DNA of 64,000 nucleotides, from contig OZ241917.1 of NCBI GenBank assembly GCA_965203805.1, positions 3,296,001-3,360,000 of the forward strand, written 5' to 3'. Below are positions 12,008 through 48,308 of the stretch, in pieces (position 1 is the stretch's first letter; each line of letters begins with the position of its first letter). The notes under the pieces are model-generated. The model made no database searches. It was not told the DNA's origin and saw only the letters and a program-made list of their open reading frames with translations. The translations under genes were made by a program, and so were the position numbers. The DNA is from Candidatus Latescibacterota bacterium. GTDB lineage: Bacteria > Latescibacterota > UBA2968 > GCA-2709665.

Positions 12008-12442
12008 GCGGGATTTGCGGGAAGGTGGGATGTTGGGGTTGCCCTGGGCGCGTTGTTTGAAGCTGTTGTTGGTGACTCTTTTGACTTCCAGGCTCTTTGC
12101 GCCGAAGTTGATGAGCAGCCCGACCTCCAGGTCGAACGCCTCGAGGTAGTTGATCGCCTGCGCGAAATGGACGTCTTCCAACTCGATCACTGCCTTCAGT
12201 TCAACACACACGACGTTTTCCACCAGGAAATCGGCTCTTCTGAAGCCTATCTGTTTACCTTTGAAAAAAATGGGCATTTTATGCTCGCGGCTGAAAGAAA
12301 TGTCCTCAATTTCCATCTCCATCTGCAGCGCATTCTGGTAGATGGATTCCTGGAAGCCGTTGCCCAGCGCGGAATGGACCGTCATCGCGCAACCGATAAT
12401 CTTCGCTGTCAGCGCCGAGTGTTTGTGTTCATTCTTTATCAT
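12005..12442 (-). CDS. GxxExxY family protein (PD-(D/E)xK nuclease-like)
   Basis: LGNGFQESIYQ, ADFLVE..VELKA, QAINYL, GLLINFG. Confidence 0.92.
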   Translation of the reverse strand: MIKNEHKHSALTAKIIGCAMTVHSALGNGFQESIYQNALQMEMEIEDISFSREHKMPIFFKGKQIGFRRADFLVENVVCVELKAVIELEDVHFAQAINYLEAFDLEVGLLINFGAKSLEVKRVTNNSFKQRAQGNPNIPPSRKSR

Positions 12443-30774: not shown

Positions 30775-31690
30775 AGAAGGAAGAGGAAGAAGGGGTGGTC
30801 CTCGTGCGGTTTATCCATTGTGTCCTGACAGGACGCCTGCCGGCGGACATACACCCCTTGGAACCGCGTTCCGGCCGGTCCCAAACTTTACTTCTTCAAT
30901 CTTCAATTTTTCTTCCTGCCCTTTTTCTTGCTTCGCCCAAGAAAAAGGGCCAAAAAGAAGGGCGCCTGCCTGCCTGCCAAAGCGTCACTGGCAGGCGCAG
31001 GCAGGCCGCTCAAACGCCGCGGGGCTGCTTTTCCGCGAACCGTTTCGGTGGCGAATACGGAAGTCGTTGCCCTGAAACCCTTGCAGGCGTTCCCGGACCA
31101 CGTTGCTGGACGGACTCGCGCGGAAAAGCCTCTTCCCCACCGCCGGACGCGTGATAGGAACTTACAAGAAACCGTACGGCGATGTTCCTGCGCGCTGGAG
31201 CGTTTACAGACCCGCCTCTCCTCACCGCCGAGACCTACCCCCTAGCCCCCTTCCTGTGAGGAAGGGGGACCCCCGGATCCCGTCGCGTGGCGTTCGTTAC
31301 CCTTTCCTTATAGGAAAGGGTCCCTGCCTGGCGGTGGTTTTTCGCCAGGCAGGGGGGATAGGTCTGCGCATCCGCGAGGTCATGTCGCCAGGCCTTATCG
31401 TCGCCCCGTTGAAGCAGGTTGTCATCTCCCGTCTTACGTCTCCCGTCTCCCGGCCTTTCAGACCTACCCCCTTCCTATAAGGAAGAAGGAAAGCAGGATC
31501 CTATCGCGCGGCGTTCGTTTCCCTTTCCTTATAGGAAAGGGTCCCTGCCTGGCGGTGGTTTTTCGGCAGGCAGGGGGGAGAGGTCTGCGCATCCGCGAGG
31601 TCATGTCGCCAAGCCTTATCGTCGCCCCGTTGACGCAGGTTGTCATCTCCCGTCTCACGTCTAACGTCTCACCAGGGGAGGGGGGTTGGG
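30775..31690 (+). repeat. Mosaic repeat cassette (A, C, D, C, D)
   Basis: Last cassette in the + orientation. Confidence 0.95.
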
Positions 31691-31711
31691 AGGAAGGTTT
31701 TATTTTATCGC

Positions 31712-31750
31712 AAAAAAAACCGCCGGGCCTCCCGCCCGGCGGTTTTTTTT
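31712..31750. terminator. Bidirectional intrinsic terminator
   Basis: A8-CCGCCGGGC-ctccc-GCCCGGCGG-T8, just past the stop at 31769. Confidence 0.9.
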
Positions 31751-31768
31751 ATATCTATGCGACTGCGA

Positions 31769-33250
31769 CTACTTGAGCAGCAGCATTTTCTGGGACAGCG
31801 TGGAGGTTCCGGCGTCGACCTTGGCGATGTAGACACCGCTCGCAACGCCGCGTCCCTGGTTGTCCCGGGCGTCCCACTGGATCGAGTAGCGACCCGCCGC
31901 GGTGATCTGAGAAACCAGGCGCCGCACCTGCTGGCCGAGCACGTCGTAGATGACGACCGAAACCGGTCCCGCCTCGGGCAGGTCGTAGGAAATCGTGGTG
32001 CTGGGGTTGAAGGGGTTCGGATACACGTTGACCGCAAACTCCGTGGGCAACGGCATCCGGGCGCCCAACAGCACCTCGATCACGTTCGACTGCGCGATCG
32101 AGCCGTCCAGGTCCACCTGCTCGAGCCGGTAGTACACCTTGTCCACGCCCGGCAGGTCCTTGTCTTCAAAGCTGTAATTCATCAGGGCGTCCGACGTCCC
32201 CGCGCCCTGCACGAAGTTGCCGACCGCCTCGAAGTTCTCGCCGTCGACGCTGCGCATGATCCGCCAGCCCGCGTTGTTCGTCTGCGAAACCGTAGACCAG
32301 TTCAGTACCACGCGGTCCGTCTGCAGCGCGCCGTCGAAGGAGGCCAGCTCGGCCGGGTTCAACTGTGTGAACGTAAACGTGGCCGGCGTCGTTTCCTCAC
32401 CGTTTACGGTGGCCTTCACGGTCACCTGCAGGCTCCCGCCGGTCACCTTCAGGACGATCTTGTCCGCCGAGACCATCCCCCCATCATCGAGCTCCAGCAT
32501 CATCCCGTCCACGTCCAGGACGCTCAGGGACCCGTCGCCCGTCGTGCTCACCGTCCAGCTGATCGACGGGTCATCCGGCAGGTTATCCAGGCTGACGGTG
32601 ACGGATGCGCTGCCGCCCATGGCGGGAATCTGAATCATATTCCCAGACATCAGACCTTCGCCCATGCCCATGATGGTCGGGCCCGTGGGCGCTGCAACCG
32701 TCACGATCGCCTCCGACACGTTCAGGCTGTCCTGCTCGAAGCCTGCTGTGCCGATGACCGCGTGCTTGACCTTGAAGGATCCGCCCTCCGCAATATCGGC
32801 TTTCGCCATGATCTTCACGGTCGCGAAGTAGCCATTGTCGCCAATTGTGACAGGCGATAGTCCGCCGAGCGTAAACTCGTCGTCCCGCATGCCGCCCGCG
32901 CCGAGCACGTTAACGATGCCGTCGACAGCCACGATCTGCCACGAGGTGCCGAACATCATTTCATCCGCGGCGGGATCGACGAATTTGACGTTGCCTCCAA
33001 TGATACCTTCGCCGGCGCTGTCTTCAATAAACAGCTCGACCTTGATCGTATCGCCGGCCATGGTCATCGAAGGCGCGATGGTATTCACGCCCTCGTTCAC
33101 CTTGTTGGCGTTGTCGTCAACCATGTTGAAGACGGTATCGACCAGCAGCTTCTTACCCTTCAGGGCGCCCGCATCGACGCCACCGACGATGACGGTCACA
33201 AGAAAAACGGCGACCGTCAGGAAGCCCAAAATCGGTTTAACTCTATACAT
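31769..33250 (-). CDS. Secreted protein with possible cohesin-like N-domain and FlgD-Ig/T9SS-type C-terminus
   Basis: AGGAG RBS; signal peptide; YPNPFNPSTTISY..WDARDNQG..ASGVYI..KMLLLK. Confidence 0.85.
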   Translation of the reverse strand: MYRVKPILGFLTVAVFLVTVIVGGVDAGALKGKKLLVDTVFNMVDDNANKVNEGVNTIAPSMTMAGDTIKVELFIEDSAGEGIIGGNVKFVDPAADEMMFGTSWQIVAVDGIVNVLGAGGMRDDEFTLGGLSPVTIGDNGYFATVKIMAKADIAEGGSFKVKHAVIGTAGFEQDSLNVSEAIVTVAAPTGPTIMGMGEGLMSGNMIQIPAMGGSASVTVSLDNLPDDPSISWTVSTTGDGSLSVLDVDGMMLELDDGGMVSADKIVLKVTGGSLQVTVKATVNGEETTPATFTFTQLNPAELASFDGALQTDRVVLNWSTVSQTNNAGWRIMRSVDGENFEAVGNFVQGAGTSDALMNYSFEDKDLPGVDKVYYRLEQVDLDGSIAQSNVIEVLLGARMPLPTEFAVNVYPNPFNPSTTISYDLPEAGPVSVVIYDVLGQQVRRLVSQITAAGRYSIQWDARDNQGRGVASGVYIAKVDAGTSTLSQKMLLLK

Positions 33251-33320
33251 CTCGCCTCTCCTTCTCGGTGTGTGGTGTGTTTCGCTCCAGAATTCCATGC
33301 TCGCTCCAGTAACGAAAACT

Positions 33321-33360
33321 GAAGTATGGGAGGCTCCCGGAGGAACCTCCCATACGCTTC
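33321..33360 (-). terminator. Intergenic hairpin (terminator or stabiliser)
   Basis: GTATGGGAGG...CCTCCCATAC followed by TTCAGTTTT on the minus strand. Confidence 0.6.
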
Positions 33361-33365
33361 CTGCA

Positions 33366-36300
33366 TTACTTGAGCAACATCAACCGCTTGGCATCCTGGA
33401 ACTTACCGGCAACCGAGACCTGGTAGAAGTAAATTCCACTCGAGACCGATACGCCGCGGTCGTCCATTCCGCTCCACTGCACCGTATACCGTCCGGGGGC
33501 CTGGCGCTCGCGCACCAGCGTCCGAACCTCCTGGCCCAGCAGGTTGTAGATGCGAAGCACCACGTCCCCGCCTTCAGCCAGGTCGTACGGAATGTTGGTC
33601 TGCGGGTTGAACGGGTTCGGGAAGTTCTGATGCAGCGCGAACTCGGTGGGCGTGCTCTGCACGTCCAGCGCGCCCAGCGTCACCACCGGGTTCTGCAACT
33701 GATCGGCGTCGAAGACCACGCCCTGCGCGATCTCGAAGCGGGCGCTGTCGTCGAACTCCCTCAGAACCTTGAACGTGAAGGTCACCAGGGCGCCCTCGCC
33801 GCTCACCGTACCCGACTCTGTAATGACGTTCACCACCGAGATCCGGCCCTCTTCCGTCCAGTTCTTGAACAGCGGCGTCTCGCCGCCTTCGGACTTCAGC
33901 AGATCGTTCTCGGCGGGCGCGACGCTGACGAATTCGAACTTGTCGGCGTCATACGCCAGCTCCAGACCGTAGCCGTTCAACTGCCTGGCGTTGGCCATGG
34001 AGACCGTCAACGTCACCGTCTCGCCGACCAGCACCTTGTCGCCGGTCAGTTCGAGCGTCATCTCCGTATCGGCGTTCACGCCCGGACGCTGCGGAACCAC
34101 CGCCAGCTTGCCGGCAGGCACCACCGCCGTCTTACCGAACGTCGCTGCCGCCGTTACGAAGTCGGAAAAGTCCACGCTGCCGTCGTCATCGACGTCGGCC
34201 TGCGGATTGTAGTTGGCATCGCCCTTCTTGCTGTTGAAGGCTGCCGCGAAGGCGACGAAGTCTTCGAAGTCCACCTCAAGACTTCCGCCCTTCGACGGAA
34301 GCACCATAAGGTAAACGGGTTCGCCATCGGCGTCCACGAAGGACACACGGACCGAGATGTCCGAGACCGTGATCAGGTCGCTCATCGCCACGTTGTTGTC
34401 GTCGAACGCGTCGATCCGATAGACCAGCGAGGTCACGCCGTCAGGCAGGTTGTCGTCGGAGAAACGGGTGGAGCCCGCGGGGATGGAGGCGACTTCCTCC
34501 AGTGCGTCGGCAGACGCGCCTCTCATCACCTTGTAGCCGTTCACACCCATGATTGGAATGTTATACTTCCCGTCCCCGTTCGGATTAGGACGATAGGGAA
34601 TGTAGTCTACCACGCCCTCGCTGGCCGAGGCCGTCCAGGTCAGCACCACACCGCCGGCGCCGGTGCCGGATGCGTCGGTAACCGCGGCCGGAGCGATGTC
34701 GTCAACTGCCGCAACCGGCTCCTCCGTCACCGTGCGCGCCGACGACAGGATATCGCCCGCGTGTTTCGTCCGGATGTTGGACGGAAGCGCCGCGCTGCCG
34801 ATCAGTGCGCTCAGGTCCGGATTCACCGGCGCGAAGACCACACCCTTCTGATCGCCGATGAGGGACTTGACGTAGTCTTCAGGCGCGTTGAACTGATTGC
34901 TCAGCTCCTCGTCCGTCAGAAGCTCCGCCTCGGGCATACCCAGCAACTGCAGCGTCTGCTGGATGCTCTCCTTCGTGTACACGCGCTTGCTGGCCACGGA
35001 TGTGGTCGGATCGGATTCGCCGCCGTCGCTGATTGACGTCACGCCCCAGTTGGTGCGGACGTTGTCGATCGCGGGAACGATCACGGTCTGCATGCCGCCT
35101 TCCGCGTCGCCCATGTTGTCACCCGCGTCCGCCGCGAAGCTGACGCTCGTCCACGGCACCCACTTCTTCACGGGCTCTTCGAGCTCAACCACGTTGCCTT
35201 CTTCATCCACACCCGTGGTCGAGTCGATTTCCCGGGAAATCTGGTAGGCCGACACGGCTTCGTGCTGCGACGAATTCGGGAAACTGACGACCACGACACC
35301 GCCCTGGTCGCCCTCTCCGTCCGCGCCCTTGTAGTCCTGCACCACCACGTTCGCTACCGCGGCAGGCGCGCCCGGATCCGGACCGTCGCCGTCCTCGGAT
35401 ACAATGGTGACGGTCACGCTGCCCGTGAGGGCGCCGGTCTTATCCTTTACAGGTGTATCTGCCTGCAAAGCACCGGTTACGTAGGTATCAACAACCGTCC
35501 TGACACTGATTGTCGCCTTGCCGCCGACGTCGGCAGCCACCGCGCCGTACGTGGACCCTTCAAGGCTGGTCACCATCTGCTGGCCGTCGGGCACCTGCAC
35601 CGCGGCGTTGCTGGACGCAAAGGTGAAGGCAACCGACGCGAAATCCTTCGAACCCGTATTGTTGTCAATCCTCAAACTGGGGTTGCCGAACGCGTCAGTC
35701 GGCACCACTTTTACCGTAAAGGAGCCAGCCACGTTGTCGGTTGATATCTCACCCTCGTAGCCCGTGAGGGTAAACTTCGAGAACTCAGCGATCTGGACGT
35801 TGATCGGCTTGGCAGCCTGCCCGCTGATACGCAACGTGTACGCGCCGGTGGCCGGATCGATAGTGCCCTCGGCCGCGTACAGGACCACGCCCGTGAGCGG
35901 CTTCGTGGACTTGAACTTAACTTCCCGCGTACCCGCGTGCCATCCGTCGCCGTCCAGGATGGCGGCCTTCGCCACCATGCCCGCGGCGGCGAGGTCGGCG
36001 GGAAGCGTGAACGCGGGCGCCGCGCTTACGCCGGTGCCGCTGAAGCTCGCGCCTTCAAGCGCGTCGGCCTGGTCGCCGGAAACGATTGCGGCCAGCGCCG
36101 ACGGCGTATGATACGTGACCGCCCGAACGTCGGAGGCGTCGCTATCCCGTTCCTTTTCGATACGCGTCAGCGTTGTGTCGAGCACGGACACCGCTATTTT
36201 GTAGTCCACGCCGGCAACCTGCTTCTCTTTCAAGGCCGCATCCGGGACAATCTTGAACATATCGGCGTCCGGATTTTCAAAGACCTTTTTGAACGTGAGC

Positions 36301-38354
36301 AGACCGCCCTCCGTCACGCTGGCGTTACCCGCCAGGTCGATCGCCAGGATCTCCAGATTGTACCTCTGGCGATCAATAAGGGTATCGTTCACCGGCCAGG
36401 AGATCAGACTGCTCACCATCTCCAGCCTGGCGTTGCCTGGGCCATAGGGCTGCACGATGGCCGTTCCGCCGCCCTGCTCATGATAACGTATGGACAGCGA
36501 GTCCAAGTCTTCGTTGATATTGAAGACCGGGTTCTTGGTGGCCGGGACGATGGTGGGCGCGTCCTCGTTGTCCGCGTCTTTGGGCGCGGTCTCGTTCGTC
36601 GGGAACAGATTGGTGATCCCCGGGGTATTGCCGTCCAGCGTGATGCCAGTAAGCTCCTTATACTCGGTCTTGTTGCCCAGGCTGTCCCAGACCGTGATGA
36701 TGATGTCCCCTGCCGTTCCGCCCTTGGCTACGTACTTGTTTTTCGCGATACCCGCCACGACGTCGTTCTCTTCAGTGAACCACATGGGCTGATCAGAGGG
36801 CTGATCATCGGCATCGTCATCCAATCCTGCTTCTATATTGAGGAAGTCCACCTTGGCCTCTTTATCGCTGCCGGTGGGGTCGAGTGAGAAGTCTGTTTCA
36901 GTGGTGGCATCGGTGGCAGGATCATCGCCCAAGTAGTCGTCCAGCGTGAGCGTACTGTCGGCGTGCTTGATCGTGATCTTGCTCGTCCCCTCGCTGAGTT
37001 TGAACACGAGCGGATTCAATTTGCGGTTGCTTGTACCCCCCGGCACCTCACCCGTCAACGGCGTATAATTGGAAAGCTCCTGCGTGACTGCCGCCGTGAT
37101 CACAGGATCGTGCGATCCCGCCGCGATACTGTCGGGATTGGGATAAACTACCGTCACCTTGGGATTGGTCGCGTCGCCGATAATCGGGATGTTTGTCGCT
37201 TCGGCTGGGTCCGCTGTCCCGTCGGCTGGGGTGCTCAGGTCAGAGGTGACGTCCGCTACGAGTTTGTCGGCAGTGCCGTGAAGTCCTTTCCAATTGGCAG
37301 CCGCGGGCGCCGCAGCCGTACCGCCCACGTTACCGGCAACGTCCACGAGATAGGCAAAGAGTTCGAGCCGCTCGTTATCCTTGAACTGCCCCGCTTTGAT
37401 TTTCTCATCGACGCTCGGATTCGGGCTGTACAATCTGTCCCCGCGCAGCTCGATTTTTAACCGCGCATCTTCCTTGAAAGCGAGGGCGTTCGCCTCTTCC
37501 AAGGTCAAACCGAGGCCAGGGGGGTCAGCGTCTGCGGCAATCTGATAACGCGCAATCGAGTCGGCGGGCACCAGACCGATTTCGATCCCTTCCGCCCTGG
37601 CATCAAGAATTGCGTCGGTATCCAGATTCAGCACCGCTTTGAATACATGGTCGGTGACAATATGGATCGCCTGGACGTAGGGGCCGGCTGTGATAGCGGC
37701 ATCCGACGTATCGGTCATTACCTCGTCCAACCTGCCCAGGTCCAGAGCGATACTCTCAAATACCGTGCCATGAATCGGGCGTTCGGCGTCGAGGCCGAAG
37801 AGCACCCCGTCACCCACGCGGCTGGCGCCGAAGCCGGCTGTGGCGGGCGTGATCTTCCGGTTCCTCATCAGGTTGTTCAGAGGATCCGGATTCGGTGAGC
37901 CGCCCGGATCCACCACGATCTTCAACGCGTGGTTGCTGCTGCTCTCCATATTTTCCGCAGGTGCGGTGTTGGCGACGACCGCGATCTTGACATTGAAGGT
38001 GTCAACGCCTGAAGTCTCGCCGTCACCCTTTGTTATCTGGGTGGCGCTACCGGTTCCATCGTCATCAATATTGTAATAAACCTTATCCGCAAGGGTGCTA
38101 GCGGCTCCGATGTCGCCGTCAGCAACGCTGGAATCGGCCACGGCAAACCGGAAACCTTCGTCGAGCCGGCCGTCGTAGCACAGGATCCGCACTCTGATTG
38201 TATCGCCGATCGCGGCCCATTTGTTGGCTTTAGGCTCGTCGACGCGAATCAAGATACCCCGCGTGGCGGCGACTTCCTGGGCCGAGGCCACGCCAACCAC
38301 TCCGAAAACCAGCAGAAACGCCAAACCAATACTTGAAACCGTCTTTAACTGCAT
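33366..38354 (-). CDS. Large surface protein (1662 aa) with dockerin-like, cohesin-like and FlgD-Ig/T9SS-type C-terminal domains
   Basis: AAGGAGG RBS, MQLKTVSS signal peptide; DVDDDGSVDFSDF; VGETVTLTV..LAYDADKFEFV..LVTFTFKV; NFPNPFNP..LMLLK. Confidence 0.85.
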   Translation of the reverse strand: MQLKTVSSIGLAFLLVFGVVGVASAQEVAATRGILIRVDEPKANKWAAIGDTIRVRILCYDGRLDEGFRFAVADSSVADGDIGAASTLADKVYYNIDDDGTGSATQITKGDGETSGVDTFNVKIAVVANTAPAENMESSSNHALKIVVDPGGSPNPDPLNNLMRNRKITPATAGFGASRVGDGVLFGLDAERPIHGTVFESIALDLGRLDEVMTDTSDAAITAGPYVQAIHIVTDHVFKAVLNLDTDAILDARAEGIEIGLVPADSIARYQIAADADPPGLGLTLEEANALAFKEDARLKIELRGDRLYSPNPSVDEKIKAGQFKDNERLELFAYLVDVAGNVGGTAAAPAAANWKGLHGTADKLVADVTSDLSTPADGTADPAEATNIPIIGDATNPKVTVVYPNPDSIAAGSHDPVITAAVTQELSNYTPLTGEVPGGTSNRKLNPLVFKLSEGTSKITIKHADSTLTLDDYLGDDPATDATTETDFSLDPTGSDKEAKVDFLNIEAGLDDDADDQPSDQPMWFTEENDVVAGIAKNKYVAKGGTAGDIIITVWDSLGNKTEYKELTGITLDGNTPGITNLFPTNETAPKDADNEDAPTIVPATKNPVFNINEDLDSLSIRYHEQGGGTAIVQPYGPGNARLEMVSSLISWPVNDTLIDRQRYNLEILAIDLAGNASVTEGGLLTFKKVFENPDADMFKIVPDAALKEKQVAGVDYKIAVSVLDTTLTRIEKERDSDASDVRAVTYHTPSALAAIVSGDQADALEGASFSGTGVSAAPAFTLPADLAAAGMVAKAAILDGDGWHAGTREVKFKSTKPLTGVVLYAAEGTIDPATGAYTLRISGQAAKPINVQIAEFSKFTLTGYEGEISTDNVAGSFTVKVVPTDAFGNPSLRIDNNTGSKDFASVAFTFASSNAAVQVPDGQQMVTSLEGSTYGAVAADVGGKATISVRTVVDTYVTGALQADTPVKDKTGALTGSVTVTIVSEDGDGPDPGAPAAVANVVVQDYKGADGEGDQGGVVVVSFPNSSQHEAVSAYQISREIDSTTGVDEEGNVVELEEPVKKWVPWTSVSFAADAGDNMGDAEGGMQTVIVPAIDNVRTNWGVTSISDGGESDPTTSVASKRVYTKESIQQTLQLLGMPEAELLTDEELSNQFNAPEDYVKSLIGDQKGVVFAPVNPDLSALIGSAALPSNIRTKHAGDILSSARTVTEEPVAAVDDIAPAAVTDASGTGAGGVVLTWTASASEGVVDYIPYRPNPNGDGKYNIPIMGVNGYKVMRGASADALEEVASIPAGSTRFSDDNLPDGVTSLVYRIDAFDDNNVAMSDLITVSDISVRVSFVDADGEPVYLMVLPSKGGSLEVDFEDFVAFAAAFNSKKGDANYNPQADVDDDGSVDFSDFVTAAATFGKTAVVPAGKLAVVPQRPGVNADTEMTLELTGDKVLVGETVTLTVSMANARQLNGYGLELAYDADKFEFVSVAPAENDLLKSEGGETPLFKNWTEEGRISVVNVITESGTVSGEGALVTFTFKVLREFDDSARFEIAQGVVFDADQLQNPVVTLGALDVQSTPTEFALHQNFPNPFNPQTNIPYDLAEGGDVVLRIYNLLGQEVRTLVRERQAPGRYTVQWSGMDDRGVSVSSGIYFYQVSVAGKFQDAKRLMLLK

Positions 38355-38781
38355 TACCAACCTCCTTGTGAAACAGGACGCTTCGTAAAACCTGCGGTAA
38401 ACCTCCCTTGCTGCGCCTTGAAGCCACTTCTTGAACCCCGGCAGAACCCCCGGCGGGGGGTGCCGGTAATCGGAAGTGATGTGAAATTTAGCTGAAATGG
38501 CGTTCCTCCCTTCGTTTGGAAAATTCATAAAGTTCCTGGCCTGCAAACACTTGGTGCGACTATCGACATTGGTTGAACCCTTGTAAGCGCTCGATTCTGT
38601 TACACCTCCTTTTAAATGCACAAAAGCCACCCCCTCGTCTCCGGTCTTCAAGAGATAGCATGATTGATTCATCATAGTGTGTTGAGGTTCCAACAACCCG
38701 GTTCCGATAGTCGATGAAAACAGCCATGAATTCGGCCGATTTCGCTGTTCAGCCGCACGTTATGCGGCAAACAGGTTCCTA

Positions 38782-38810
38782 AGTATACGCAACACTAAAC
38801 AGGCTGTCAA
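38782..38810 (-). promoter_or_regulatory. Sigma70-type promoter
   Basis: TTGACA-17 nt-TATACT with an upstream A-tract. Confidence 0.75.
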
Positions 38811-38947
38811 GTGTTTTTTGTACTTTATTCTTCACGTGAAATCCGGTATGCCGAATGGCCCCAAACCCCTGTAAATTACGGCGCTTTCGCGCCCCGCGCA
38901 ACCCCAACATATAGGGCCCCGTCTATTGGTTGCCACAATACGCCGTG

Positions 38948-39517
38948 TCAGCGCATCTGATGTTCGAGCCGCTGGATTTCATCGCGCAGGCTGGCCGCCT
39001 CTTCGTACTGTTCCCGGGCCACGGCTTCCTTCAATTCGGCCCTGAGGGCGGTCAGCCGATCGGAGATCCCGCCTTCGACCTGCTCGAATTCCACGTCCAG
39101 CGAGGCGCTGATGGGCATCCCGGCCTCCTGGATGACTCTGTCTTCGACGTAGACCGGGGCGCCCGTGCGGAGGGCCAGGGCGAGGGCGTCGCTGGGCCGG
39201 GAGTCCACGCCGATGGATTTGCCGTCGGCATCCAGGCTGACTTCGGCGAAGAAGACGTCTTCCTCGATCGCGTTGATGAGCACCCGCTTGACCTTGACGC
39301 CCATTCCATCCAGAATGGAACGGAGCAGCTCGCAGGTGGGCGGCCGGGGGGGATCTTCGTCGTACAGCGCCATGTAGATGGCCGTGGCTTCGAAGTTCCC
39401 GATGGAGATGGGCAGGAAGATCCGCTGCTCCCTGTCTTTCAGCCACACGAGCGGCCGGTTGGTGTTGGGTTCCACCGCCACGCCGACCACGTTCATTTCT
39501 ACCATAGGGGTGTACAT
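38948..39517 (-). CDS. Bifunctional nuclease (DUF151) with C-terminal UVR domain
   Basis: LPISIGNFEA, RPPT, DSRPSDALALA, EQYEEAASLRDEI; start could be 39505. Confidence 0.9.
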   Translation of the reverse strand: MYTPMVEMNVVGVAVEPNTNRPLVWLKDREQRIFLPISIGNFEATAIYMALYDEDPPRPPTCELLRSILDGMGVKVKRVLINAIEEDVFFAEVSLDADGKSIGVDSRPSDALALALRTGAPVYVEDRVIQEAGMPISASLDVEFEQVEGGISDRLTALRAELKEAVAREQYEEAASLRDEIQRLEHQMR

Positions 39518-39639
39518 CCTTCCCGGCGCGGGTAGGGGAGGATGATTTGCGCCGCTGGGGGAGGGCGTTTTTGGCGAATACACTTACTAAACAAGAATAT
39601 AGGGCGAAGGTCACGGAAAAATCAAGGGAAAAAAGGCGG

Positions 39640-42000
39640 GTAGCGAACCACCCCCAGCCCCGCAGACCTCTCCCCCCAACCCCCTCTCCCGGGGGGAGAG
39701 GGGGAGGAAAGACAGGCATCGCGTGCCGGTCATCTATAGATACTCTGATAGACGGGAATTCGCCAGCCGGCACACTTGCATGCCCAGGACATCGACCCAT
39801 CACCGTTCCCCCTTCCTCACAGGAAGGGGGATAGGGGGTAGGTCTGAGGAGGGGGGAAAAGCAGCAGTCAGCAAGCAGCGATCAGCGGTCAGCGGTCAGC
39901 GGTCAGCCTAAAGCAAGATCAAAAACAAGAGTCAAAGTCAGTTCACACGGAGACACAAAGGCACGAAGAAAAACAAAGCGGCCAGGACGAACCACCCCCC
40001 AGCCCCGCAGACCTCTCCCCCCGGCCTGCCTGCGCCGAGTTCTGCTCGGCAGGCAGGCCCCCTCTCCCGGGGGGAGAGGGGGAGACAACCAGGACTCCCT
40101 GATAGGATCACCGTTCCCCCCTTCCCCCCGGGAAGGGGGATAGGGGGTAGGTTGGTGGGGAGGAGAGGGGGGACCGGCGGTACCCGCTATCGCTTTTCGA
40201 TATGTGCTCTGATTGATTCAAGCACGCCGTCGAGATTCGTGTGGACTTGGTCATTTGTAATACGCAATACATCTAATCCTCGCGCGTTTAGGATCTCATC
40301 CCGTTTTGCGTCATACGCAGCCTGATCCTGGTGAATCTCGCCGTCGACTTCAATTACCAGGCCGACGGAATGACAATAGAAATCGACAACGAAGCCGTCG
40401 ATGATCTGCTGCCGACGAAAGTGAAGGCCATCGAGCCGATTCGCACGCAAGTGTTGCCATAGCTGTTTTTCTTCTTCTGTCATTTGTGAGCGCAGCGACT
40501 GTGCCAACTTGACCTTCTCATTGTCAACACGTTGACCCCTTACGATATATCGCCTGGATCTATTCATCAACCCCTCCGCCCAACGCAGACCTCTCCCCCC
40601 GGCCCACAACCAGCAGTCAGCCAGAAACAGAAGCAAAATCAAAAACAAGAGTCAAAGTCAGCTCACACAAAGGCACAAAGACACGAAGAAAAACAAACCA
40701 GCCAGGAGCGAACCACCCCCAGCCCCGCAGACCTCTCCCCCCGGCCTGCCTGCGCCGAGTTCTGCTCGGCAGGCAGGCCCCCTCTCCCGGGGGGAGAGGG
40801 GGAGACAACCAGGACTCCCTGATAGGATCACCGTTCCCCCCTTCCCCCCGGGAAGGGGGATAGGGGGTAGGTCTGAGGAGGGGGGAAAAGCAGCAGTCAG
40901 CAAGCAGCTTTCAGCAGTCAGCAATCAACCTAAAGCAAAATCAAAAACAAGATTCAAAGTCAGCTCACACAAAGACATTAAGAAAAACAAAGCAGCCAGG
41001 TGCGAACCACCCCCCAGCCCCGCAGACCTCTCCCCCCGGCCTGCCTGCGCCGAGTTCTGCTCGGCAGGCAGGCCCCCTCTCCCGGGGGGAGAGGGGGAGA
41101 CAACCAGGCATCGCGTGCCGGTCATCTATAGATACTCTGATAGACAGGAATTCGCCACCCGGCACACTTGCATGCCCGGTCCATCGACCCATCGCCGTTC
41201 CCCCTTCCTCACAGGAAGGGGGATAGGGGGTAGGTCTGAGGAGGGGGTGTGGGGGTGAAAACCAGGCATCACGTGCCGGTCATCTATAGATACTCTGATA
41301 GACAGGAATTCGCCAGCCGGCACACTTGCATGCCCACGACATCGACCCATCGCCGTTCCCCCTTCCTCACAGGAAGGGGGTTAGGGGGTAGGTCGGCGGG
41401 GGGAGACGCAAGACGTGAGACGGGAGATGATCACTCGCGTCAACGGGGCGACGATAAGGCCTGGCGACATGACCTCGCGGATGCGCAGACCTCTCCCCCC
41501 TGCCTGCCGAAAAACCACCGCCAGGCAGGGACCCTCTCCTGTGAGGAGAGGGTAACGAACGCCACGCGATAGGATCCGGGGGTCCCCCTTCCGTCGGGAA
41601 GGGGGTAGGCAGTAGGTTGGCGGTGGTGTGGGAGATTGCAAGCGTTGCATCGCGCAAGAAGTTCATCGCAGGTAACTTCGCGAGGTTCTATCGAACGCAC
41701 GGAGGATGGGGTGGGGCTTTTCCGCGCGAGTCCGTCCAGCAACGTCGTCCGGGAATGCCTGCGAGGGTTTCAGGGCAACGTCTCCCGGTGTGTCTCCACG
41801 GAAGCGGTTCGCGGAAAAGCAGCCCCGCGGCGTTTGAGCGGCCTGCCTGCGCCGAAGCCTGCTCGGCAGGCAGGCACGCTTCTTTTTGGTCCTTTTTCTT
41901 ACGTGGATAAGAAAAAGGACGAAGAAGAAAAAAGTAAATTAGAGATGTGAAGTTTGGGACCGCCCGGAACGCAGTTCCAACGGGTGTTTCCCGCCGGCGG
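39640..42000 (-). repeat. Mosaic repeat cassette enclosing a DUF559 gene
   Basis: Reverse complements of modules A-D and F; about 39860-40150 repeated at about 40610-40870 and partly at about 40890-41110. Confidence 0.95.
40187..40567 (-). CDS. DUF559 (Vsr-like) endonuclease
   Basis: LRSQMTEEEKQLWQHLR, FRRQQIIDGFVVDFYC, VIEVDGEIH, D..RD..L...G..VLRI. Confidence 0.93.
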   Translation of the reverse strand: MNRSRRYIVRGQRVDNEKVKLAQSLRSQMTEEEKQLWQHLRANRLDGLHFRRQQIIDGFVVDFYCHSVGLVIEVDGEIHQDQAAYDAKRDEILNARGLDVLRITNDQVHTNLDGVLESIRAHIEKR

Positions 42001-42010
42001 GCGCACGACC

Positions 42011-45000
42011 CTAGCCGCCGGGCGGCGGGAACGCCGTTAGGCCGAAGGAGGCGGCGAAGGTGAGATAATCGGCGAAGTCTACGGCGCCGTCGTCGTTGAC
42101 GTCGGCCTGGGGGTTGTAGGCCGGGTCGCCCTTTTGGGTCCCGAAGGCGGCGGCGAAGGCGATGAGGTCTTCCAGGTTGACCTGGAGATCGCCGCCCTGC
42201 GACGGGAGGACGATGAGGTAGACCGGATCGCCGGCGGCGTCCGCGAACGTCACGCGGACGGAGATGTTCTCAACCGCGAACGGGGCGCCCGGCGTCACGT
42301 TGTTGTCGTCAACCGCGTCGATCCGGTAGACCAGGGAGGCGACGGCGGCGGGCAGGGCGTCGTCAGCGAAACGGGTGGCGCCCGGAGGCAGCGCGGCGAT
42401 TTCCTCGAGGCGGTCGGCGGATGCGCCTCGCATCACCCGGTAGCCCGTCACGCCATAGATGGGCAGGTTATGGCCGCGGTACGGGATGAACCCCACCACG
42501 CCGTCATCCGCGGACGCCGTCCAACGCAGCGTCACGCCGCCCGCGCCGTCGCCGGACGCGCCGGTCACCGCGGCGGGCGGGATGTTGTCGACCGCGCCGG
42601 CCGGTCCGTCGGTTTCCGTGCGCGCGGACACCCGGAGTTCGCCCGCCGCGCGGTCGGTGCGGACGTTCGCGGGAACGGGCGCGGCGGCCATTGGCGCGCT
42701 CAAGCGCGGATCCGCGGGCGCGAAGACCAGGTCCCGCCGATCGCCGATGACGGACGCGGCGAAATCCCCAGGCGCGTTGAAGCGGTCCGCCGGCTCTCCT
42801 CCCGTCAGGACCGGCGCGGGAATGCCCGGCAGCGCGAGGGCCTGAGCCGCGCTCGCCTTGGTGAAAACCCGCTTCCCGGCGGGGGCCGAATCCGCGCCCG
42901 AGACGGACCTGACGCCCCACCGGGTGGCCGCGTTGTCCAGCGCGGGGACCACGGCGCGGACCAGACCGCCGTTTGCGCCGCCCGTCCCGACGCGGCCGCC
43001 CCCAACGCCGACGGTCGCCCAGTGCATCCACGCCTTCACGGGCGCTTCGCGGTGAATTTCCCGGCCGTGCTCGTCATACCCCGCCAGCGTCGTCTCGACT
43101 TCGCGCTCGATCCGGTAGTGGATCACGGCATCGCGCCGGGCGGCATGCGGGAACCCGATCAGCACCATGCCGCCCTGGTCGCCGGACCCGTCCGCGCCTT
43201 CGTAGTCCTCGACCGTGATGGAGGCGGGCGGGTCCGGGGCGCGGTTCCCAGGCGCGAAACGCACGGTCACGCTTCCCGTAAGCGCGCCGGTCGCGGCGCT
43301 GTCGCCCGACCCCGTGACAAGCCCCTCGTGAACCGTGCGCACGGTGATCACCGCGCTGCCCGCCATCTCCGCGGCCACGGCGCCGAAGCCGGCCCCGCCG
43401 GGCGGGACCGTCTGCACGCCCGCGGGTACCGTCACCGCGGCGTGGCTGCTACCGAAGGTGACGCCCACCGACGCGTAGGTCTCCGATCCCACGGCATTGT
43501 CGATTTTCATGCTCACGTTGCCGAATGCGTCGGCGGGAAGCACGCGGACCGTAAAGGCGCCGGACACGCCGCCGTCCGGATCCGCGGCGTCCCCCGCGGA
43601 CACCACGAATTGCGAGAACTCTGCGGCCTCAACGTTCACCGCCGCGTCCAGCCGGCCGCTGATGCGAATCGAAACCGTCCCGTCCACGGGGTCGGTCAGG
43701 CCCTCCGCGGCCATCACCACGGCGTCGACCAGCGGCCTGGCGGACCTGAAGCTGACGTCGCGCCGGCCCGCGCGCCACCCGTCGCCGTCCAGAACGGCGG
43801 CGCGGGCGACCATCCCGGCGGCGGCCATCTCCGCGGGCAGCGCGAAGGACGGCGCGGGCGTCACACCGATGCCGCCGAAGCTCACGCCTTCCAGCGCGCG
43901 GGCCTGGTCGCCGGAAACGATCACGGCCAGCGCCGCGGGCGTACGATAGGTCAACGCGAAGACGCCGGCGCCCTCGGCGCGTGAGAGCGTGGTGTCCAGG
44001 ACCGACAGGCGCAGGGTGAAATCCACGCCCGCAACCACGCTGCCGCCCTGGTCCGGCGCGTTGACGATGCGGAACGCGTCGGCCTTCGGATTCAGGAAAC
44101 CCCCGGCGAACGTGAGCGCCCCGCCGCCGGTCACGCTGGCGTTGCCGGCGAGATCCACCGCCAGAATCTGCAGATCGTACCGGCTTCCTTCGTAAAAACC
44201 CGCGCTTTCCACGGGCCAGATCATCGGTTTGCCGACGGTCTCCAGCCGGCGGTTGCCCCGTCGGAAACGCTGCACGACGGCCGGGCCGCCGACGGCGAGG
44301 TCGATATAGCGGACGGACAGCGAATCCAGCGCCTCGTCGATGGCGAAGACCGGGTCCTTGCCGGCCAGGTTGATGGTGGGCTCGTCGAAGTTGTCCGGAT
44401 CCCGGGGCGCGGTGGCCGCGGTGGGGAACAGATCGGAGATCACCGGCGCTTTTTCGTCGTACCAGATGCCGGCGAGGTCCATGGCGGCCCGGTTCCCCAC
44501 GCTGTCCCAGACCTCGATCGTCAGGTCTTTCCGCACGCCGCCCGCGCGATCGTATTTCCAGGGAAGCGCAAGCGCGGCCGTGGAATCGTCGCCCGTGGGC
44601 GGCAGACCTTCGTCGACGTCAACCGTGCCGGCGTCATCGACTGCGCCGCTGCCGACGCCGTGCGCGCTGTCGCCGTGGGTGATCCTGATCGAGTCCGGGA
44701 CTTCGCTGAGACTGAACGTGAGCGGGTTCAACCTGCGGTTGGCCTGAACGTCCTCCGCCTCTCCGGGCAGGGGTCGAACTCCCGACAGCGTCTGCGTGAC
44801 GGCCGCCGAGATCCGGTTTTCCATGCGGTCCGGTCGCGGGTACACGATCGTGATCCGGGGCGGTGTCGCGTCGGCGATCCATTCCACGCCGCCGGGATCG
44901 AATGCGTCCGGAAGGCCGTACCCGGCACTGACGGGCGACGGCGCGGGGGCGCCCATCGAGGCGCCGCCCAGGTTGCCGGCGGCATCCACGAGAAACGCTT

Positions 45001-45901
45001 CGACCCTGACCCGCCGGTTATCGCCGAAATCGCCCGCTTCGACCTTCGCCGACGCCCGCACGTTCGCGTTGTACAACCGCTCTCCGACAATCGCGAAGGT
45101 GACCGGCGCCGAGGAAAACGCCGAGTCCGCGTCCACGACCCCCGCCCGGATGCGGTCCGCCCCCGCACGCAGCACGCCGGCCGTGTTCAGACCGATCCGG
45201 ATGGTGATTCTGTCGCCGCGTTTGAACCTGACGCGCTCGATCGCCCCCGCCGGCGTGGCGTCGAATCCGAGGCCTTCCGTTTCAACGGCGAAGGATTCGA
45301 ACGCGTCGGCGTGCACGGGACGGTTGGCGTCGATGCCGAACCGCACCCCGTCGCCCACCCGGTTGGCGCCGAAGCCCGTGGACGCCGGGGTGATCTTCGT
45401 CTTCGTCATCAGGTTGTTCAGCTCGTTGCCGGCCACGTCCGCGTCGAGGTCCACCACCACTTTCACCGCGCGGCTGTCCGTCGACGCAAAGGGGTCGGCG
45501 CGCGGGGAGACGGTTATGGAGACCCGGAACGTGTCGACGCCCGATGCCTCGCCGTCGCCAAACGCGACACCGTCCGGTAGATGACCCGGACCGGGTACAT
45601 ATATATTGTAATAGACAAATCCACGCGTGGCGGCGGTCCCGCCGGCCGTAGCGCCCACGTCCCTGTCGCGCACGGTTGCATCGACGACCGACACGCGGAA
45701 CCCTCGATCCAGGAGGCCGCCGTACGTCAGGATGCGGATGTCGATCCCGCCGTCGATCTTCACCCAGGCATTGGCGGCCGGCCGGTCCACGCGAATCATG
45801 ATCCCCGGCGTCTCCGCGACGTCCTGCGCCCGCGACGCCCCCGCGACACCCGGAACCAGCAAGAACGCCAGAACCGGGACTGAAGATATCCGCAACCGCA
45901 T
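42011..45901 (-). CDS. Large secreted protein, paralog of 33366-38354, ending at the dockerin-like domain
   Basis: Shared blocks KITPA..GFGA.RVGDGV.FG, ILA.DLAGNASVT, GDQGG, DVNDDGAVDFAD; signal peptide. Confidence 0.85.
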   Translation of the reverse strand: MRLRISSVPVLAFLLVPGVAGASRAQDVAETPGIMIRVDRPAANAWVKIDGGIDIRILTYGGLLDRGFRVSVVDATVRDRDVGATAGGTAATRGFVYYNIYVPGPGHLPDGVAFGDGEASGVDTFRVSITVSPRADPFASTDSRAVKVVVDLDADVAGNELNNLMTKTKITPASTGFGANRVGDGVRFGIDANRPVHADAFESFAVETEGLGFDATPAGAIERVRFKRGDRITIRIGLNTAGVLRAGADRIRAGVVDADSAFSSAPVTFAIVGERLYNANVRASAKVEAGDFGDNRRVRVEAFLVDAAGNLGGASMGAPAPSPVSAGYGLPDAFDPGGVEWIADATPPRITIVYPRPDRMENRISAAVTQTLSGVRPLPGEAEDVQANRRLNPLTFSLSEVPDSIRITHGDSAHGVGSGAVDDAGTVDVDEGLPPTGDDSTAALALPWKYDRAGGVRKDLTIEVWDSVGNRAAMDLAGIWYDEKAPVISDLFPTAATAPRDPDNFDEPTINLAGKDPVFAIDEALDSLSVRYIDLAVGGPAVVQRFRRGNRRLETVGKPMIWPVESAGFYEGSRYDLQILAVDLAGNASVTGGGALTFAGGFLNPKADAFRIVNAPDQGGSVVAGVDFTLRLSVLDTTLSRAEGAGVFALTYRTPAALAVIVSGDQARALEGVSFGGIGVTPAPSFALPAEMAAAGMVARAAVLDGDGWRAGRRDVSFRSARPLVDAVVMAAEGLTDPVDGTVSIRISGRLDAAVNVEAAEFSQFVVSAGDAADPDGGVSGAFTVRVLPADAFGNVSMKIDNAVGSETYASVGVTFGSSHAAVTVPAGVQTVPPGGAGFGAVAAEMAGSAVITVRTVHEGLVTGSGDSAATGALTGSVTVRFAPGNRAPDPPASITVEDYEGADGSGDQGGMVLIGFPHAARRDAVIHYRIEREVETTLAGYDEHGREIHREAPVKAWMHWATVGVGGGRVGTGGANGGLVRAVVPALDNAATRWGVRSVSGADSAPAGKRVFTKASAAQALALPGIPAPVLTGGEPADRFNAPGDFAASVIGDRRDLVFAPADPRLSAPMAAAPVPANVRTDRAAGELRVSARTETDGPAGAVDNIPPAAVTGASGDGAGGVTLRWTASADDGVVGFIPYRGHNLPIYGVTGYRVMRGASADRLEEIAALPPGATRFADDALPAAVASLVYRIDAVDDNNVTPGAPFAVENISVRVTFADAAGDPVYLIVLPSQGGDLQVNLEDLIAFAAAFGTQKGDPAYNPQADVNDDGAVDFADYLTFAASFGLTAFPPPGG

Positions 45902-46469
45902 AGCCGGCCTCCCTTTGGGTCACCACGCGCCGATTCATCCCGGCGGGCAGGGCGGCAAAATCCATGCCATCGGGAGGCCGAAGGCGTCACGCGGCATCGA
46001 CGGCGGGCTCGCCATTGCGAATTCGGAGGACCGGTCGACGGACCGGGTTGGCGCGAGGGATGCGGAAACGGTTGAAGAAACGGCGCGGGAAGGCGTTCAG
46101 GCGCGGATTACGGAAAGAAGCGCCGCGGGAGGCACGGACGGCGGTTCAGGCGATCGAGGGATCCGAGGCGAGAGGCGCCGGTCGGGGAACCGAGCGGAGG
46201 GATTGAAGATATCTTTCACGTGGGTGAAAGAAGCTTTCAGCGGTCAGAGAACAGCTTTCAGCGGTCAGCAGTCAGCAGTCAGCAGTCAGCAATCAGCAAT
46301 CAGCCTAAAGCAAGATCAAAAACAAGAATCAAAGTCAACTCACACAAAGACACGAAGGCACGAAGAAAACCAAACCAGCCAGGAACGAACCACCCCCAGC
46401 CCCGCAGACCTCTCCCCCCTGCCTGCCGAAAAACCACCGCCAGGCAGGGACCCTCTCCTGTGAGGAGAG

Positions 46470-47585
46470 GGGAGAAAAGACAGGCGTCGCGTGCCGGTCA
46501 TCTATAGATACTCTGATAGACAGGAATTCGCCAGCCGGCACGTTTGCATGCCCGGTCCATCGACCCATCGCCGTTCCCCCTTCCTCACAGGAAGGGGGGC
46601 CAGGGGGTAGGTCGGCGGGGAGGAGAGAGGGAGTAAAGACAGGCGTCGCGTGCCGGTCATCTATAGATACTCTGATAGACAGGAATTCGCCAGCCGGCAC
46701 ACTTGCATGCCCGGTCCATCGACCCATCGCCGTTCCCCCTTCCTCACAGGAAGGGGGCTAGGGGGTAGGTCGGCGGGGAGGAGAGGGGGAGAAAAGACAG
46801 GCGTCGCGTGCCGGTCATCTATAGATACTCTGATAGACAGGAATTCGCCAGCCGGCACACTTGCATGCCCGGTCCATCGACCCATCACCGTTCCCCCTTC
46901 CTCACAGGAAGGGGGATAGGGGGTAGGTCGGCGGAGGCGGTGAGGGGGAGTAAAGACAGGCGTCGCGGGCCGGTCATCTATAGATACTCTGATAGACAGG
47001 AATTCGCCACCCGGCACGTCTGCATGCCCAGGACATCGACCCATCGCCGTTCCCCCTTCCTCACAGGAAGGGGGATAGGGGGTAGGTCGGCGGAGGCGGT
47101 GAGGGGGAGTAAAGACAGGCTTCGCGGGCCGGTCATCTATAGATACTCTGATAGACAGGAATTCGCCACCCGGCACGTTTGCATGCCCGGTCCATCGACC
47201 CGTCACCGTTCCCCCTTCCTCGCAGGAAGGGGGCCAGGGGGTAGGTCGGCGGAGGCGGTGAGGGGGAGTAAAGACAGGCGTCGCGGGCCGGTCATCTATA
47301 GATACTCTGATAGACAGGAATTCGCCACCCGGCACGTCTGCATGCCCAGGACATCGACCCATCGCCGTTCCCCCTTCCTCACAGGAAGGGGGATAGGGGG
47401 TAGGTCGGCGGGGGGGAGAGGGGGAGTAAAGACAGGCTTCGCGGGCCGGTCATCTATAGATACTCTGATAGACAGGAATTCGCCACCCGGCACGTTTGCA
47501 TGCCCGGTCCATCGACCCGTCACCGTTCCCCCTTCCTCGCAGGAAGGGGGCCAGGGGGTAGGTCGGCGGGGAGGAGAGGGGAGAA
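46470..47585 (-). repeat. Tandem array of seven 158-159 bp units (REP-like hairpin plus module B)
   Basis: TCTATAGATA anchors at 46501, 46660, 46818, 46977, 47136, 47295, 47453. Confidence 0.97.
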
Positions 47586-47587
47586 AT

Positions 47588-47980
47588 CTATACGTTGCAT
47601 TGAAGCCATTCCATATAAGCTCTGATTGTTTCGAGTACGCCATCGAGATTCGTGCAGATCTCGGCATTTGAGATGCGTATGACCTGTAATCCACGCGCTT
47701 TGAGAATGGCATCCCGTTCTGCGTCATAAGCTACCTGATTCTGGTGAACTTCGCCATCGACTTCAATCACTAATCCGACCGAATGACAGTAGAAGTCCAC
47801 GATAAAGCCATCGATAATCTGTTGCCGTCTAAAGCGAAAGCCATCAAGCCGTTTCGCACGCAGGCGCTGCCAAAGCCGTTTTTCTTCGTCTGTCATCTGT
47901 GATCTCAATTTGCGCGCCAACTTCACTTTCTCGCGCGCGACAGGCTGACCGATCACAATTTTTCGCAAGGGCTTTTTCAT
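47588..47980 (-). CDS. DUF559 (Vsr-like) endonuclease, paralog of 40187
   Basis: LRSQMTDEEKRLWQRLR, FRRQQIIDGFIVDFYCHSVGLVIEVDG. Confidence 0.93.
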   Translation of the reverse strand: MKKPLRKIVIGQPVAREKVKLARKLRSQMTDEEKRLWQRLRAKRLDGFRFRRQQIIDGFIVDFYCHSVGLVIEVDGEVHQNQVAYDAERDAILKARGLQVIRISNAEICTNLDGVLETIRAYMEWLQCNV

Positions 47981-48308
47981 CAGAAACCTCTCCCTCCTGC
48001 CGCGCAGACCTCTCCCCCCGGCCTGCCGAAAAACCACCGCCAGGCAGGGACCCTCTCCTGTGAGGAGAGGGGAGAAAAGACTGGCGTCGCGTGCCGGTCA
48101 TCTATAGATACTCTGATAGACAGGAATTCGCCAGCCGGCACGTTTGCATGCCCAGGACATCGACCCATCGCCGTTCCCCCTTCCTCACAGGAAGGGGGCC
48201 AGGGGGTAGGTCGGCGGGGTGGTGTGGCGGTTTGGTCACTGCAAAAATCGCGCCGCTCACCAGCAGCGTCGGACGCAAGGACGATGCGTGGGGGCCTCTA
48301 CCCGCAAC

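Follow-up and report, generated by a model that had tools for sequence, protein, structure and literature searches.

A window of 64,000 nt (G000:C1:3296001-3360000) in the 5.87-Mb single-contig genome of Candidatus Latescibacterota bacterium contains two small genes of the DUF559 family, here called genes A and B, both bounded by tagged hairpin repeats (G, C and L numbers denote the genomes, contigs and loci compared). Such genes and repeats travel together across phyla, and comparison of the loci indicates that gene-less pairs of the repeat, or doublets, arise from the gene-bearing element by internal deletion. It seems probable, at roughly 0.6, that gene and repeat constitute a nuclease-repeat pair similar to the REPtron and Ssn systems, but employing a third nuclease fold, with the protein presumably acting by cutting. 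A sequence-only reading of the window had put the system forward as undescribed; the structure of the repeat, however, marks it as a variant of an already known orphan, the BoxC/PIT/TM triplex repeat.

Repeats of the BoxC/PIT/TM type, known since the 1990s, are found in over 260 genomes, where they mark loci that are unstable; DUF559/YcjD is an orphan nuclease family. A link between the two is directly testable in E. coli K-12, which possesses ycjD and 23 TM copies. Among the open PMC and bioRxiv texts searched, none was seen to connect DUF559/YcjD with BoxC/TM or REP-like (repetitive extragenic palindromic) repeats.

Genes A and B and their repeat units

Genes A and B each match PF04480/DUF559 (E 1.5e-37, 128.2 bits vs. 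a gathering cut-off of 20.6), and their G+C content is ~48% vs. 59% for the genome. The repeat unit consists of a C-rich tag, a short spacer, often with an inserted hairpin, and a pyrimidine/purine hairpin. The tags are GACCTACCCC ('A' type) and GACCTCTCCCC ('T' type), and the units pair into A...T doublets with the tags outward, which are solitary (~110 bp) or form mosaic and tandem arrays. On the purine strand, a tail mirrors the right arm of the hairpin, e.g. GGAAGGGGG-TTA-GGGGGTAGG, and the window units overall read GGAAGGGGG-NNA-GGGGGTAGG. The A-type units, with an arm, a 3-nt loop and a mirror tail containing one mismatch, have class II triplex geometry; the geometry of the T-type unit was taken directly from sequence. 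The A hairpins fold stably (z -4.3 for 48160-48225, folded as DNA).

Like the BoxC/PIT/TM repeats (Holder et al. 2015, PMC4666352, as far as its accessible text goes), the window units combine a hairpin with a mirror purine tail, often form inverted pairs, are intergenic and vary between strains. Unlike them, they carry a GACCT tag and miss the strict TMECO consensus, which matched no unit of the window and only two places in the genome, both at the 3' ends of genes of a second DUF559 subfamily. In the accessible parts of that article, triplex formation in vitro is shown for TMECO only, and neither an associated mobile element nor a common function of flanking genes is described; in its main text 'ycjD' is absent and no enzyme partner is reported. 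The features that bound the two genes are as follows.

40187-40567, minus strand: DUF559 gene A, 126 aa, with an intact Vsr/EDxHD-type active site
40584-40600, plus strand: T-type unit of which only the tag is left, 16 nt upstream of gene A
40117-40170, minus strand: downstream boundary of gene A, left arm of a T hairpin fused to an A-type unit (both tag and hairpin)
47588-47980, minus strand: DUF559 gene B, 130 aa, 73% identical to gene A
47528-47581, minus strand: downstream boundary of gene B, half T hairpin fused to an A unit
48003-48212, minus strand: complete doublet upstream of gene B, consisting of an A unit, the non-coding module D and a T unit

The distances given by the sequence-only reading were reproduced. 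The motif CGCAGACCTCTCCCCCC lies at 40584-40600, 16 nt from the start codon of gene A (40567), and at 48003-48019, 22 nt from that of gene B (47980), whereas the end of the half-hairpin GGGGAGGAGAGGGG lies at 40170, 16 nt from the stop codon of gene A, and at 47581, 6 nt from that of gene B, with an ACCTAC tag past it at 40142-40152 (gene A) and 47553-47563 (gene B). Inverted hairpin units do flank both genes as proposed, except that upstream of gene A only the tag is present and the hairpin is missing. The half-T/A-unit junction at 47528-47581 also connects tandem D repeats, and the T unit of the doublet at 48003-48212 has an extra hairpin inserted between tag and stem. Small hairpins of this CCTGCCTGC type between tag and stem of T units have 540 matches genome-wide (window examples are 40025-40055, 41503-41530 and 48022-48050, among many others). 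Among 4292 open reading frames (ORFs) of the genome (crude calls of at least 100 aa, repeat-overlapping ORFs excluded), only genes A and B have a unit within 100 nt on both sides; within the repeat-dense 3.24-3.47 Mb region the proportion is 2 of 148.

The pairing of gene and repeat was assessed in other genomes with a tag-plus-hairpin detector applied to 250-nt flanks, which was written after the repeats had been seen. Among metagenome homologues, the best 80 of 574 confirmed loci were taken and 59 were scoreable; a unit was present on at least one side in 49/59 and on both sides in 26/59, compared with 1/109 control windows lying 600-850 nt away, which are probably mostly coding rather than matched intergenic sequence. 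The enrichment of repeat flanks that had been predicted for DUF559 genes is thereby borne out. The Latescibacterota loci, gene B among them, have the unit in 22/24 cases (controls 7/49). Eighteen of 42 plasmid and phage matches, chosen for taxonomic spread, were examined together with K-12 as named records, and the unit was found in 16/17 loci (controls 3/36). The named records include cyanobacteria, Deinococcus, Alphaproteobacteria, Neisseria and E. coli, and the alphaproteobacterial ends may resemble RIME/CIR repeats. In viral contigs, a single-protein scan found no relative and an alignment scan found 61; the unit accompanies 8/20 full-length genes and 0/30 partial or distant ones. Distant helicase-fused DUF559 domains lack it as well (0/5). 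Gene and repeat therefore co-travel across phyla.

Two layouts are common: the gene lies either inside a doublet with tags outward (L008, L012, L015, L019) or between doublets with tags inward (the window, L010, L016). The space between the two hairpins of an outward-tagged doublet is here termed the inner slot, and the tag-to-tag space the outer slot. In the canonical element (L008, L015, L012) the gene occupies the inner slot, the elements of L008 and L015 being 542-543 bp long. The outer slot, regarded by the sequence-only reading as the place of the gene, is thus its position in the window and in one of the two common layouts, but not in the canonical element.

The E. coli YcjD protein is 37% identical to the product of gene A. 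In K-12, a degenerate unit lies over the ycjD stop codon and a full TM unit ~170 nt downstream of it, and a half-pattern search of this genome returned 23 copies, equal to the number given in the accessible text of PMC4666352.

The DUF559 gene is under purifying selection, as indicated by dN/dS values of 0.07-0.25 in 20 pairs, and its predicted catalytic residues are intact: across 26 sequences E33, E73, D75, H79 and D86 do not vary, and D62 hardly varies. The predicted model (pLDDT 90) resembles NGO0050 (3HRL, Foldseek E 2.4e-8), I-Bth0305I (3R3P, 4e-4) and Vsr (1VSR, 0.04). The active-site residues of Vsr and EDxHD enzymes are described in the accessible part of PMC3239194, and the window proteins share with Vsr, I-Bth0305I (PMC3239194), NGO0050, YcjD and, according to the part of PMC12907096 that is available, Caulobacter VsrA both the fold and the conserved Glu, Asp, ExDGxxH and Asp; the conserved positions would probably map residue by residue onto those of Vsr. 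The protein is likely an active nuclease, on the evidence of the conserved residues and the predicted fold. Unlike Vsr and I-Bth0305I, genes A and B have no intron or intein, no N-terminal DNA-binding repeats and no adjacent partner methylase; the search for a cytosine methylase covered their immediate neighbours, where none was found. Both score below the NCBIfam YcjD equivalog cut-off (81-88 bits vs. 218). Neither protein gave a GIY-YIG match, and the two GIY-YIG matches of the genome sit in long ORFs elsewhere.

Gene relics, tags and copy number

The commonest non-coding doublet of the window is a shrunken relic that carries a remnant of the gene's 3' end.

39665-39844, minus strand: non-autonomous doublet of A unit, module D and T unit, a deletion derivative of the gene-bearing element
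39732-39767, minus strand: within module D, a 36-nt relic of the 3' end of DUF559 (AGEFPSIRVSID vs. DGVLESIRAHIE in gene A)

The D doublets of the window share the 5' leader of the canonical element, and their relic block, in gene sense, precedes the T hairpin by 29-30 nt. Scored against a profile built from 11 gene ends, this block reaches 9.5-20 bits, as do at most 8 in 10,000 random 95-mers of the genome and 0-1 of 300 shuffles; the 36-nt profile test was devised after the likeness had been noticed. Short doublets and other modules gave no score on this profile, and a doublet of G013 scored 42.9 bits. At genome scale, nhmmer with the gene profile found the G013 doublets (E 6e-5) and missed window module D (best D-type match E 23), so that the case for module D is that of the targeted test. 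Other loci preserve intermediate states. In L220 both ends are intact and codons ~20-88 are deleted; L221 and L222 consist of tandem full elements, the last copy being internally deleted; L219, L223 and L226 are 5'-truncated copies. In K-12 (L070, NC_000913.3, ~1351290-1351410), the last codons of ycjD are present a second time, in degenerate form and together with a degenerate unit, directly behind the gene (local score 76 vs. at most 30 in 1000 shuffles). Non-autonomous copies formed by internal deletion, as known for insertion sequences and miniature inverted-repeat transposable elements, are therefore present.

The three truncated copies (L219, L223 and L226, in G008, G013 and G011) mark a third site at which DUF559 has decayed; these three relatives have it in common, and it lies immediately upstream of a conserved gene, presumably argS.

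Three further DUF559 genes, ~40% identical and located at 5.38-5.40 Mb, form the second subfamily of this genome, and their flanking units bear a different tag, CCCTCACCC. The ACCT tags are concentrated near the window genes (113/183 within 130 kb, 5 near the second-subfamily genes), and the CCCTCA units near the genes at 5.39 Mb (11/22, vs. 2 near the window). In a quick IQ-TREE phylogeny (153 proteins, 113 columns, SH-aLRT only, the careful search being unfinished), a single clade of 41 rows (support 91), spread over Latescibacterota, Chloroflexota and metagenomes, takes in 29 of the 31 ACCTA-tagged loci, and the ACCTA label changes 10 times on the tree, compared with a shuffled mean of 28.5. 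Since kinship and cis-linkage can yield such covariation, it indicates co-travel and not recognition. The second-subfamily elements (G000:C1:5380885-5395463; L001, L004, L018, L021) lie among genes that read, from their translations, as restriction-modification-like; in relatives, several such elements are embedded in frame within open frames of 600-900 aa, whose reading includes the hairpins as peptide.

A correlation of repeat copy number with presence of the gene had been proposed as a check, and the counts in two genera agree with it. They were made with one exact pattern over 61 genomes, some matches being counted twice, and clade membership was assigned by protein identity. In genus g6, genomes with an intact clade gene have 100, 7, 18 and 413 matches vs. 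0-10 in the 17 without (p=0.0015), and in genus g1 49, 37, 33 and 30 vs. 3-27 in the 11 without (p=0.0025), p-values that are overstated because the genomes are kin. G018, G020 and G058 have the clade gene and no matches, because their tag variant escapes the pattern. E. coli genomes with ycjD contain 23, 17, 27 and 11 copies vs. 20, 2, 9 and 3 in those without ycjD at the fabI site, a comparison of 8 lineage-confounded genomes that is suggestive only.

A probable cognate nuclease and the alternative explanations

The DUF559 family is likely the partner that spreads BoxC-type repeats, because its genes sit in repeat arrays and some doublets are relics of the gene. By analogy with RAYT (REP-associated tyrosine transposase) and REP, or SsnA and NTS, the protein would, in our estimate, rather be the cognate nuclease of the BoxC/TM-type repeat than not. 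The closest parallel is Ssn, a GIY-YIG protein (SsnA) with NTS/SRM repeats, where according to the accessible text of PMC11893778 a small single-domain nuclease gene is flanked by hairpins, many repeats lack the gene, and repeat variants pair with protein variants, as in the DUF559 system. The differences are the Vsr-like fold, in place of GIY-YIG cd10448, and the repeat itself. For SsnA, cleavage of single-stranded DNA (ssDNA) near the NTS has been shown, and that text, as far as it is accessible, does not mention Vsr or DUF559. In REPtrons (RAYT with REP/BIME/REPIN; PMC3733652 and PMC3184786, accessible parts), inverted tagged hairpins likewise bracket the gene and form doublets and mosaic or tandem arrays. 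Gene-less doublets of inverted tagged hairpins are found here too, with DUF559 instead of a Y1 HUH gene between the repeats. The DUF559 element differs in having no HUH or tyrosine motif and no GTAG or CGTC tag; because these motifs are absent, no covalent strand transfer is expected from the protein.

The basic element is ~540 bp long and composed of tag-hairpin, gene and hairpin-tag. The protein would recognise the unit in single-stranded form, as a hairpin with its mirror tail and possibly an intrastrand triplex, and would probably nick the folded strand at or near its cognate unit, as SsnA does near the NTS (PMC11893778, accessible text). Host repair and recombination at the nicks would thereupon multiply, remove and rearrange units, for the most part in the vicinity of the gene; tandem amplification and reshuffling next to the gene are observed. 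Doublets would outlast loss of the gene as relics, and the position of the window genes between doublets is probably a product of such reshuffling, in intergenic hot spots that other repeat families occupy as well.

A wider proposal is made with more reserve and has somewhat less in its favour than against it. The DUF559/YcjD proteins may be widespread site-specific nucleases that read folded ssDNA (hairpin plus mirror tail, perhaps triplex) and the missing mobilising partner of BoxC/TM, forming a nuclease-REP system of independent origin, the third beside those of HUH (RAYT) and GIY-YIG (Ssn) enzymes, with the clade tags as a specificity panel. If the enzyme cuts a folded single strand, it would represent a new class of small ssDNA nucleases with specificity for both structure and sequence, and possibly also a bacterial protein reading an intrastrand triplex. 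To this the locus adds a deletion series from gene element to gene-less doublet, a dependence of copy number, and two subfamilies with separate tags in one genome.

Several points weigh against a cognate nuclease. The unit is missing at 10/59 metagenome and 12/20 full-length viral loci, and cutting by the DUF559 protein is inferred. Caulobacter VsrA, a DUF559 protein, is hypothesised in the accessible part of PMC12907096 to act in mismatch or very short patch (VSP) repair. Cis linkage alone accounts for the tag-clade covariation and the deletion relics, and unrelated repeats are also enriched around the window (12/37 and 16/58). Apart from the kinship that inflates the p-values, there are 11-27 matches in nine g1 genomes without an intact gene (G008 having a decayed copy), 16 in G016 without a clade gene, and 20 copies in an E. 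coli strain without ycjD at the fabI site. Comparison of four isolated sites revealed no filled site with a clean empty counterpart, and target duplications, sought at isolated doublets with a regex, were not found.

The best of the alternatives, though an unlikely one, is passive linkage, under which the protein is a Vsr-like repair nickase with a host function and the old ends of its gene multiply by slippage or recombination at hairpins or triplexes, independently of the protein. This agrees with the VSP repair proposed for VsrA with its DUF559 domain (PMC12907096) and with the ascription of TM-linked instability to fork stalling and repair (PMC4666352), both in the accessible texts. The repeats also persist without the gene, and site A, the place of gene A, is common to several relatives, which fits inheritance with losses. 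Yet the genes immediately next to A and B were found to include no cytosine methylase, 6/10 relatives covering site A lack the DUF559 gene there, several loci hold it in decayed form, and passive linkage predicts neither higher genome-wide copy number with an intact gene nor ends kept across phyla at ~40% protein identity.

Much less probable is an RNA role, the hairpins being transcript stabilisers, terminators or processing sites and the protein an RNA-processing nuclease that acts on its own message among others. The stable folding of the A hairpins, the position of units a few nt from start and stop codons and the action of the Vsr-like domain of FASTKD4 on mRNA (PMC11879112, accessible part) are compatible with it; however, doublet orientation is independent of neighbouring gene direction (crude gene calls), PIT elements showed neither promoter nor terminator activity (as cited in the accessible text of PMC4666352), and tandem amplification and deletion are DNA-level events.

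Spread of the repeats by an HUH transposase (RAYT, IS200 TnpA) or another enzyme acting in trans, with DUF559 as a passenger, would be more improbable still. Y1_Tnp matches do occur in 40/61 group genomes, including two in this genome, but both of these RAYT-like genes lie outside the window and have other ends, in line with the earlier expectation that no RAYT would share the ends of the repeats. Moreover, G034, a single contig of 97% completeness, has 413 pattern matches and no Y1_Tnp match, whereas G017 and G038, the richest in Y1 (32 and 61 Y1_Tnp matches), have 0 pattern matches. The Y1-enzyme version is largely refuted, the search having covered Y1 families only. Equally improbable is homing, in which gene-less doublets are cut as duplex and repair copies in the gene-bearing allele, as with EDxHD homing endonucleases: the fold and active site common with I-Bth0305I and the ends that gene-less doublets share with full elements, which would give repair homology, are outweighed by a 126-aa protein without the I-Bth0305I N-terminal DNA-binding repeats and by clade genes that stay at 1-3 copies vs. 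dozens to hundreds of doublets.

Filled sites, arrays and neighbouring genes

The comparison of filled and empty sites foreseen in the sequence-only reading gave a divided result: the presence of the gene at sites A and B varies among relatives, and a clean empty site was not found. Site A contains the gene in G000, G001, G002 and G013, a fragment in G014, and no gene in G012, G008, G009, G004, G010 and G003, that is, in 6 of the 10 relatives covering the site (two loci stop short). Site B is filled in G000 alone among 13 genomes (0/12 relatives). Since the spacers differ wholesale between relatives, no precise insertion junction is readable. Of the four isolated sites that were compared, three show another repeat mosaic or next to nothing in relatives, and the fourth has the doublet in common with them. 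For the E. coli region sapF-ycjD-fabI, a match over 80% was obtained in 3346/5426 genomes, and the alternative allele is the eef operon, according to the accessible text of PMC12817139. A fixed cut position upstream of the tag was not found, conservation fading over ~4-5 nt with no sharp edge, and the TTA and CCG loop types show no general upstream/downstream asymmetry across the compared loci. Unrelated low-GC or cargo genes occupy the same intergenic hot spots in G001 at site B (L041:13500-15400) and in G014 at site A (L046:6900-8700). In 39400-42200, contigs from four metagenome runs span gene A; they were left unused, as the joints fall within repeats and are not assignable to this locus.

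As the sequence-only reading had stated, non-coding pieces fill the outer slot in the same way as the genes; they measure 64-486 nt and occur at 9 places besides genes A and B. The arrays of the window contain the following features.

40010-40153, minus strand: short doublet with a ~36-nt spacer, recurring at 40730-40873
41025-41394, minus strand: doublet with module D and one tandem D-A repeat
46407-47564, minus strand: T unit, then a tandem array of seven 158-159 nt repeats, each made of module D and an A unit
39853-40005, strand not applicable: module E, an occupant of the outer slot, with further copies near 40600-40725, 40880-41020 and 46240-46400
41395-41487, strand not applicable: outer-slot module built on CGTCTCA-type heptamers
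42011-45901, minus strand: host gene of 1296 aa without Pfam or NCBIfam match, between the arrays and outside the system

The view of these modules as cargo of the DUF559 gene did not hold. The first part of module E matches heptamer repeats around a four-helix-bundle (PF05635) gene of this genome, and its second part matches an inverted repeat around a GxxExxY gene (TIGR04256) in two relatives. By these matches, module E is a chimera and no part of the DUF559 element proper, and because its parts match such flanking repeats, the arrays are to be read as shared hot spots of several small-gene/repeat families and not as the cassettes of one system.

GxxExxY (PF13366/TIGR04256) genes bracketed by their own inverted repeats are found in L253 (G012:C2:3637727-3638077) and at G001:C4:279098-279448, and a further GxxExxY gene lies within the window at ~12074-12412; together these look like one more pairing of a small nuclease with a repeat. 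A different heptamer repeat flanks each of three four-helix-bundle (PF05635) genes (L243, L244 and L245, at G000:C1:1101813, 3573050 and 3083809), and the L244-type repeat recurs gene-less in the window arrays.

The arrays also change orientation. The 11 at 3.24-3.33 Mb all have one orientation, the 16 at 3.336-3.457 Mb all have the opposite one, with the switch between 3327588 and 3335662 (window ~31600-39660), just left of gene A. Neither GC skew nor neighbouring gene direction (crude gene calls) accounts for it. An inversion specific to this genome was rejected because the stretch is collinear in 4/4 relatives; the flip is largely present in G012 and G002 and absent in G013.

The locus of gene A is common to relatives and lies between a gene with a bifunctional-nuclease domain and the 1296-aa gene. 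The latter (42011-45901) is syntenic in 12/12 relatives compared and is a paralogue (46% identity) of a 1776-aa gene at 33366-38696. Both paralogues have signal-peptide-like starts, and they are kept as a tandem pair across the genus with an orthologue identity of 41-88%.

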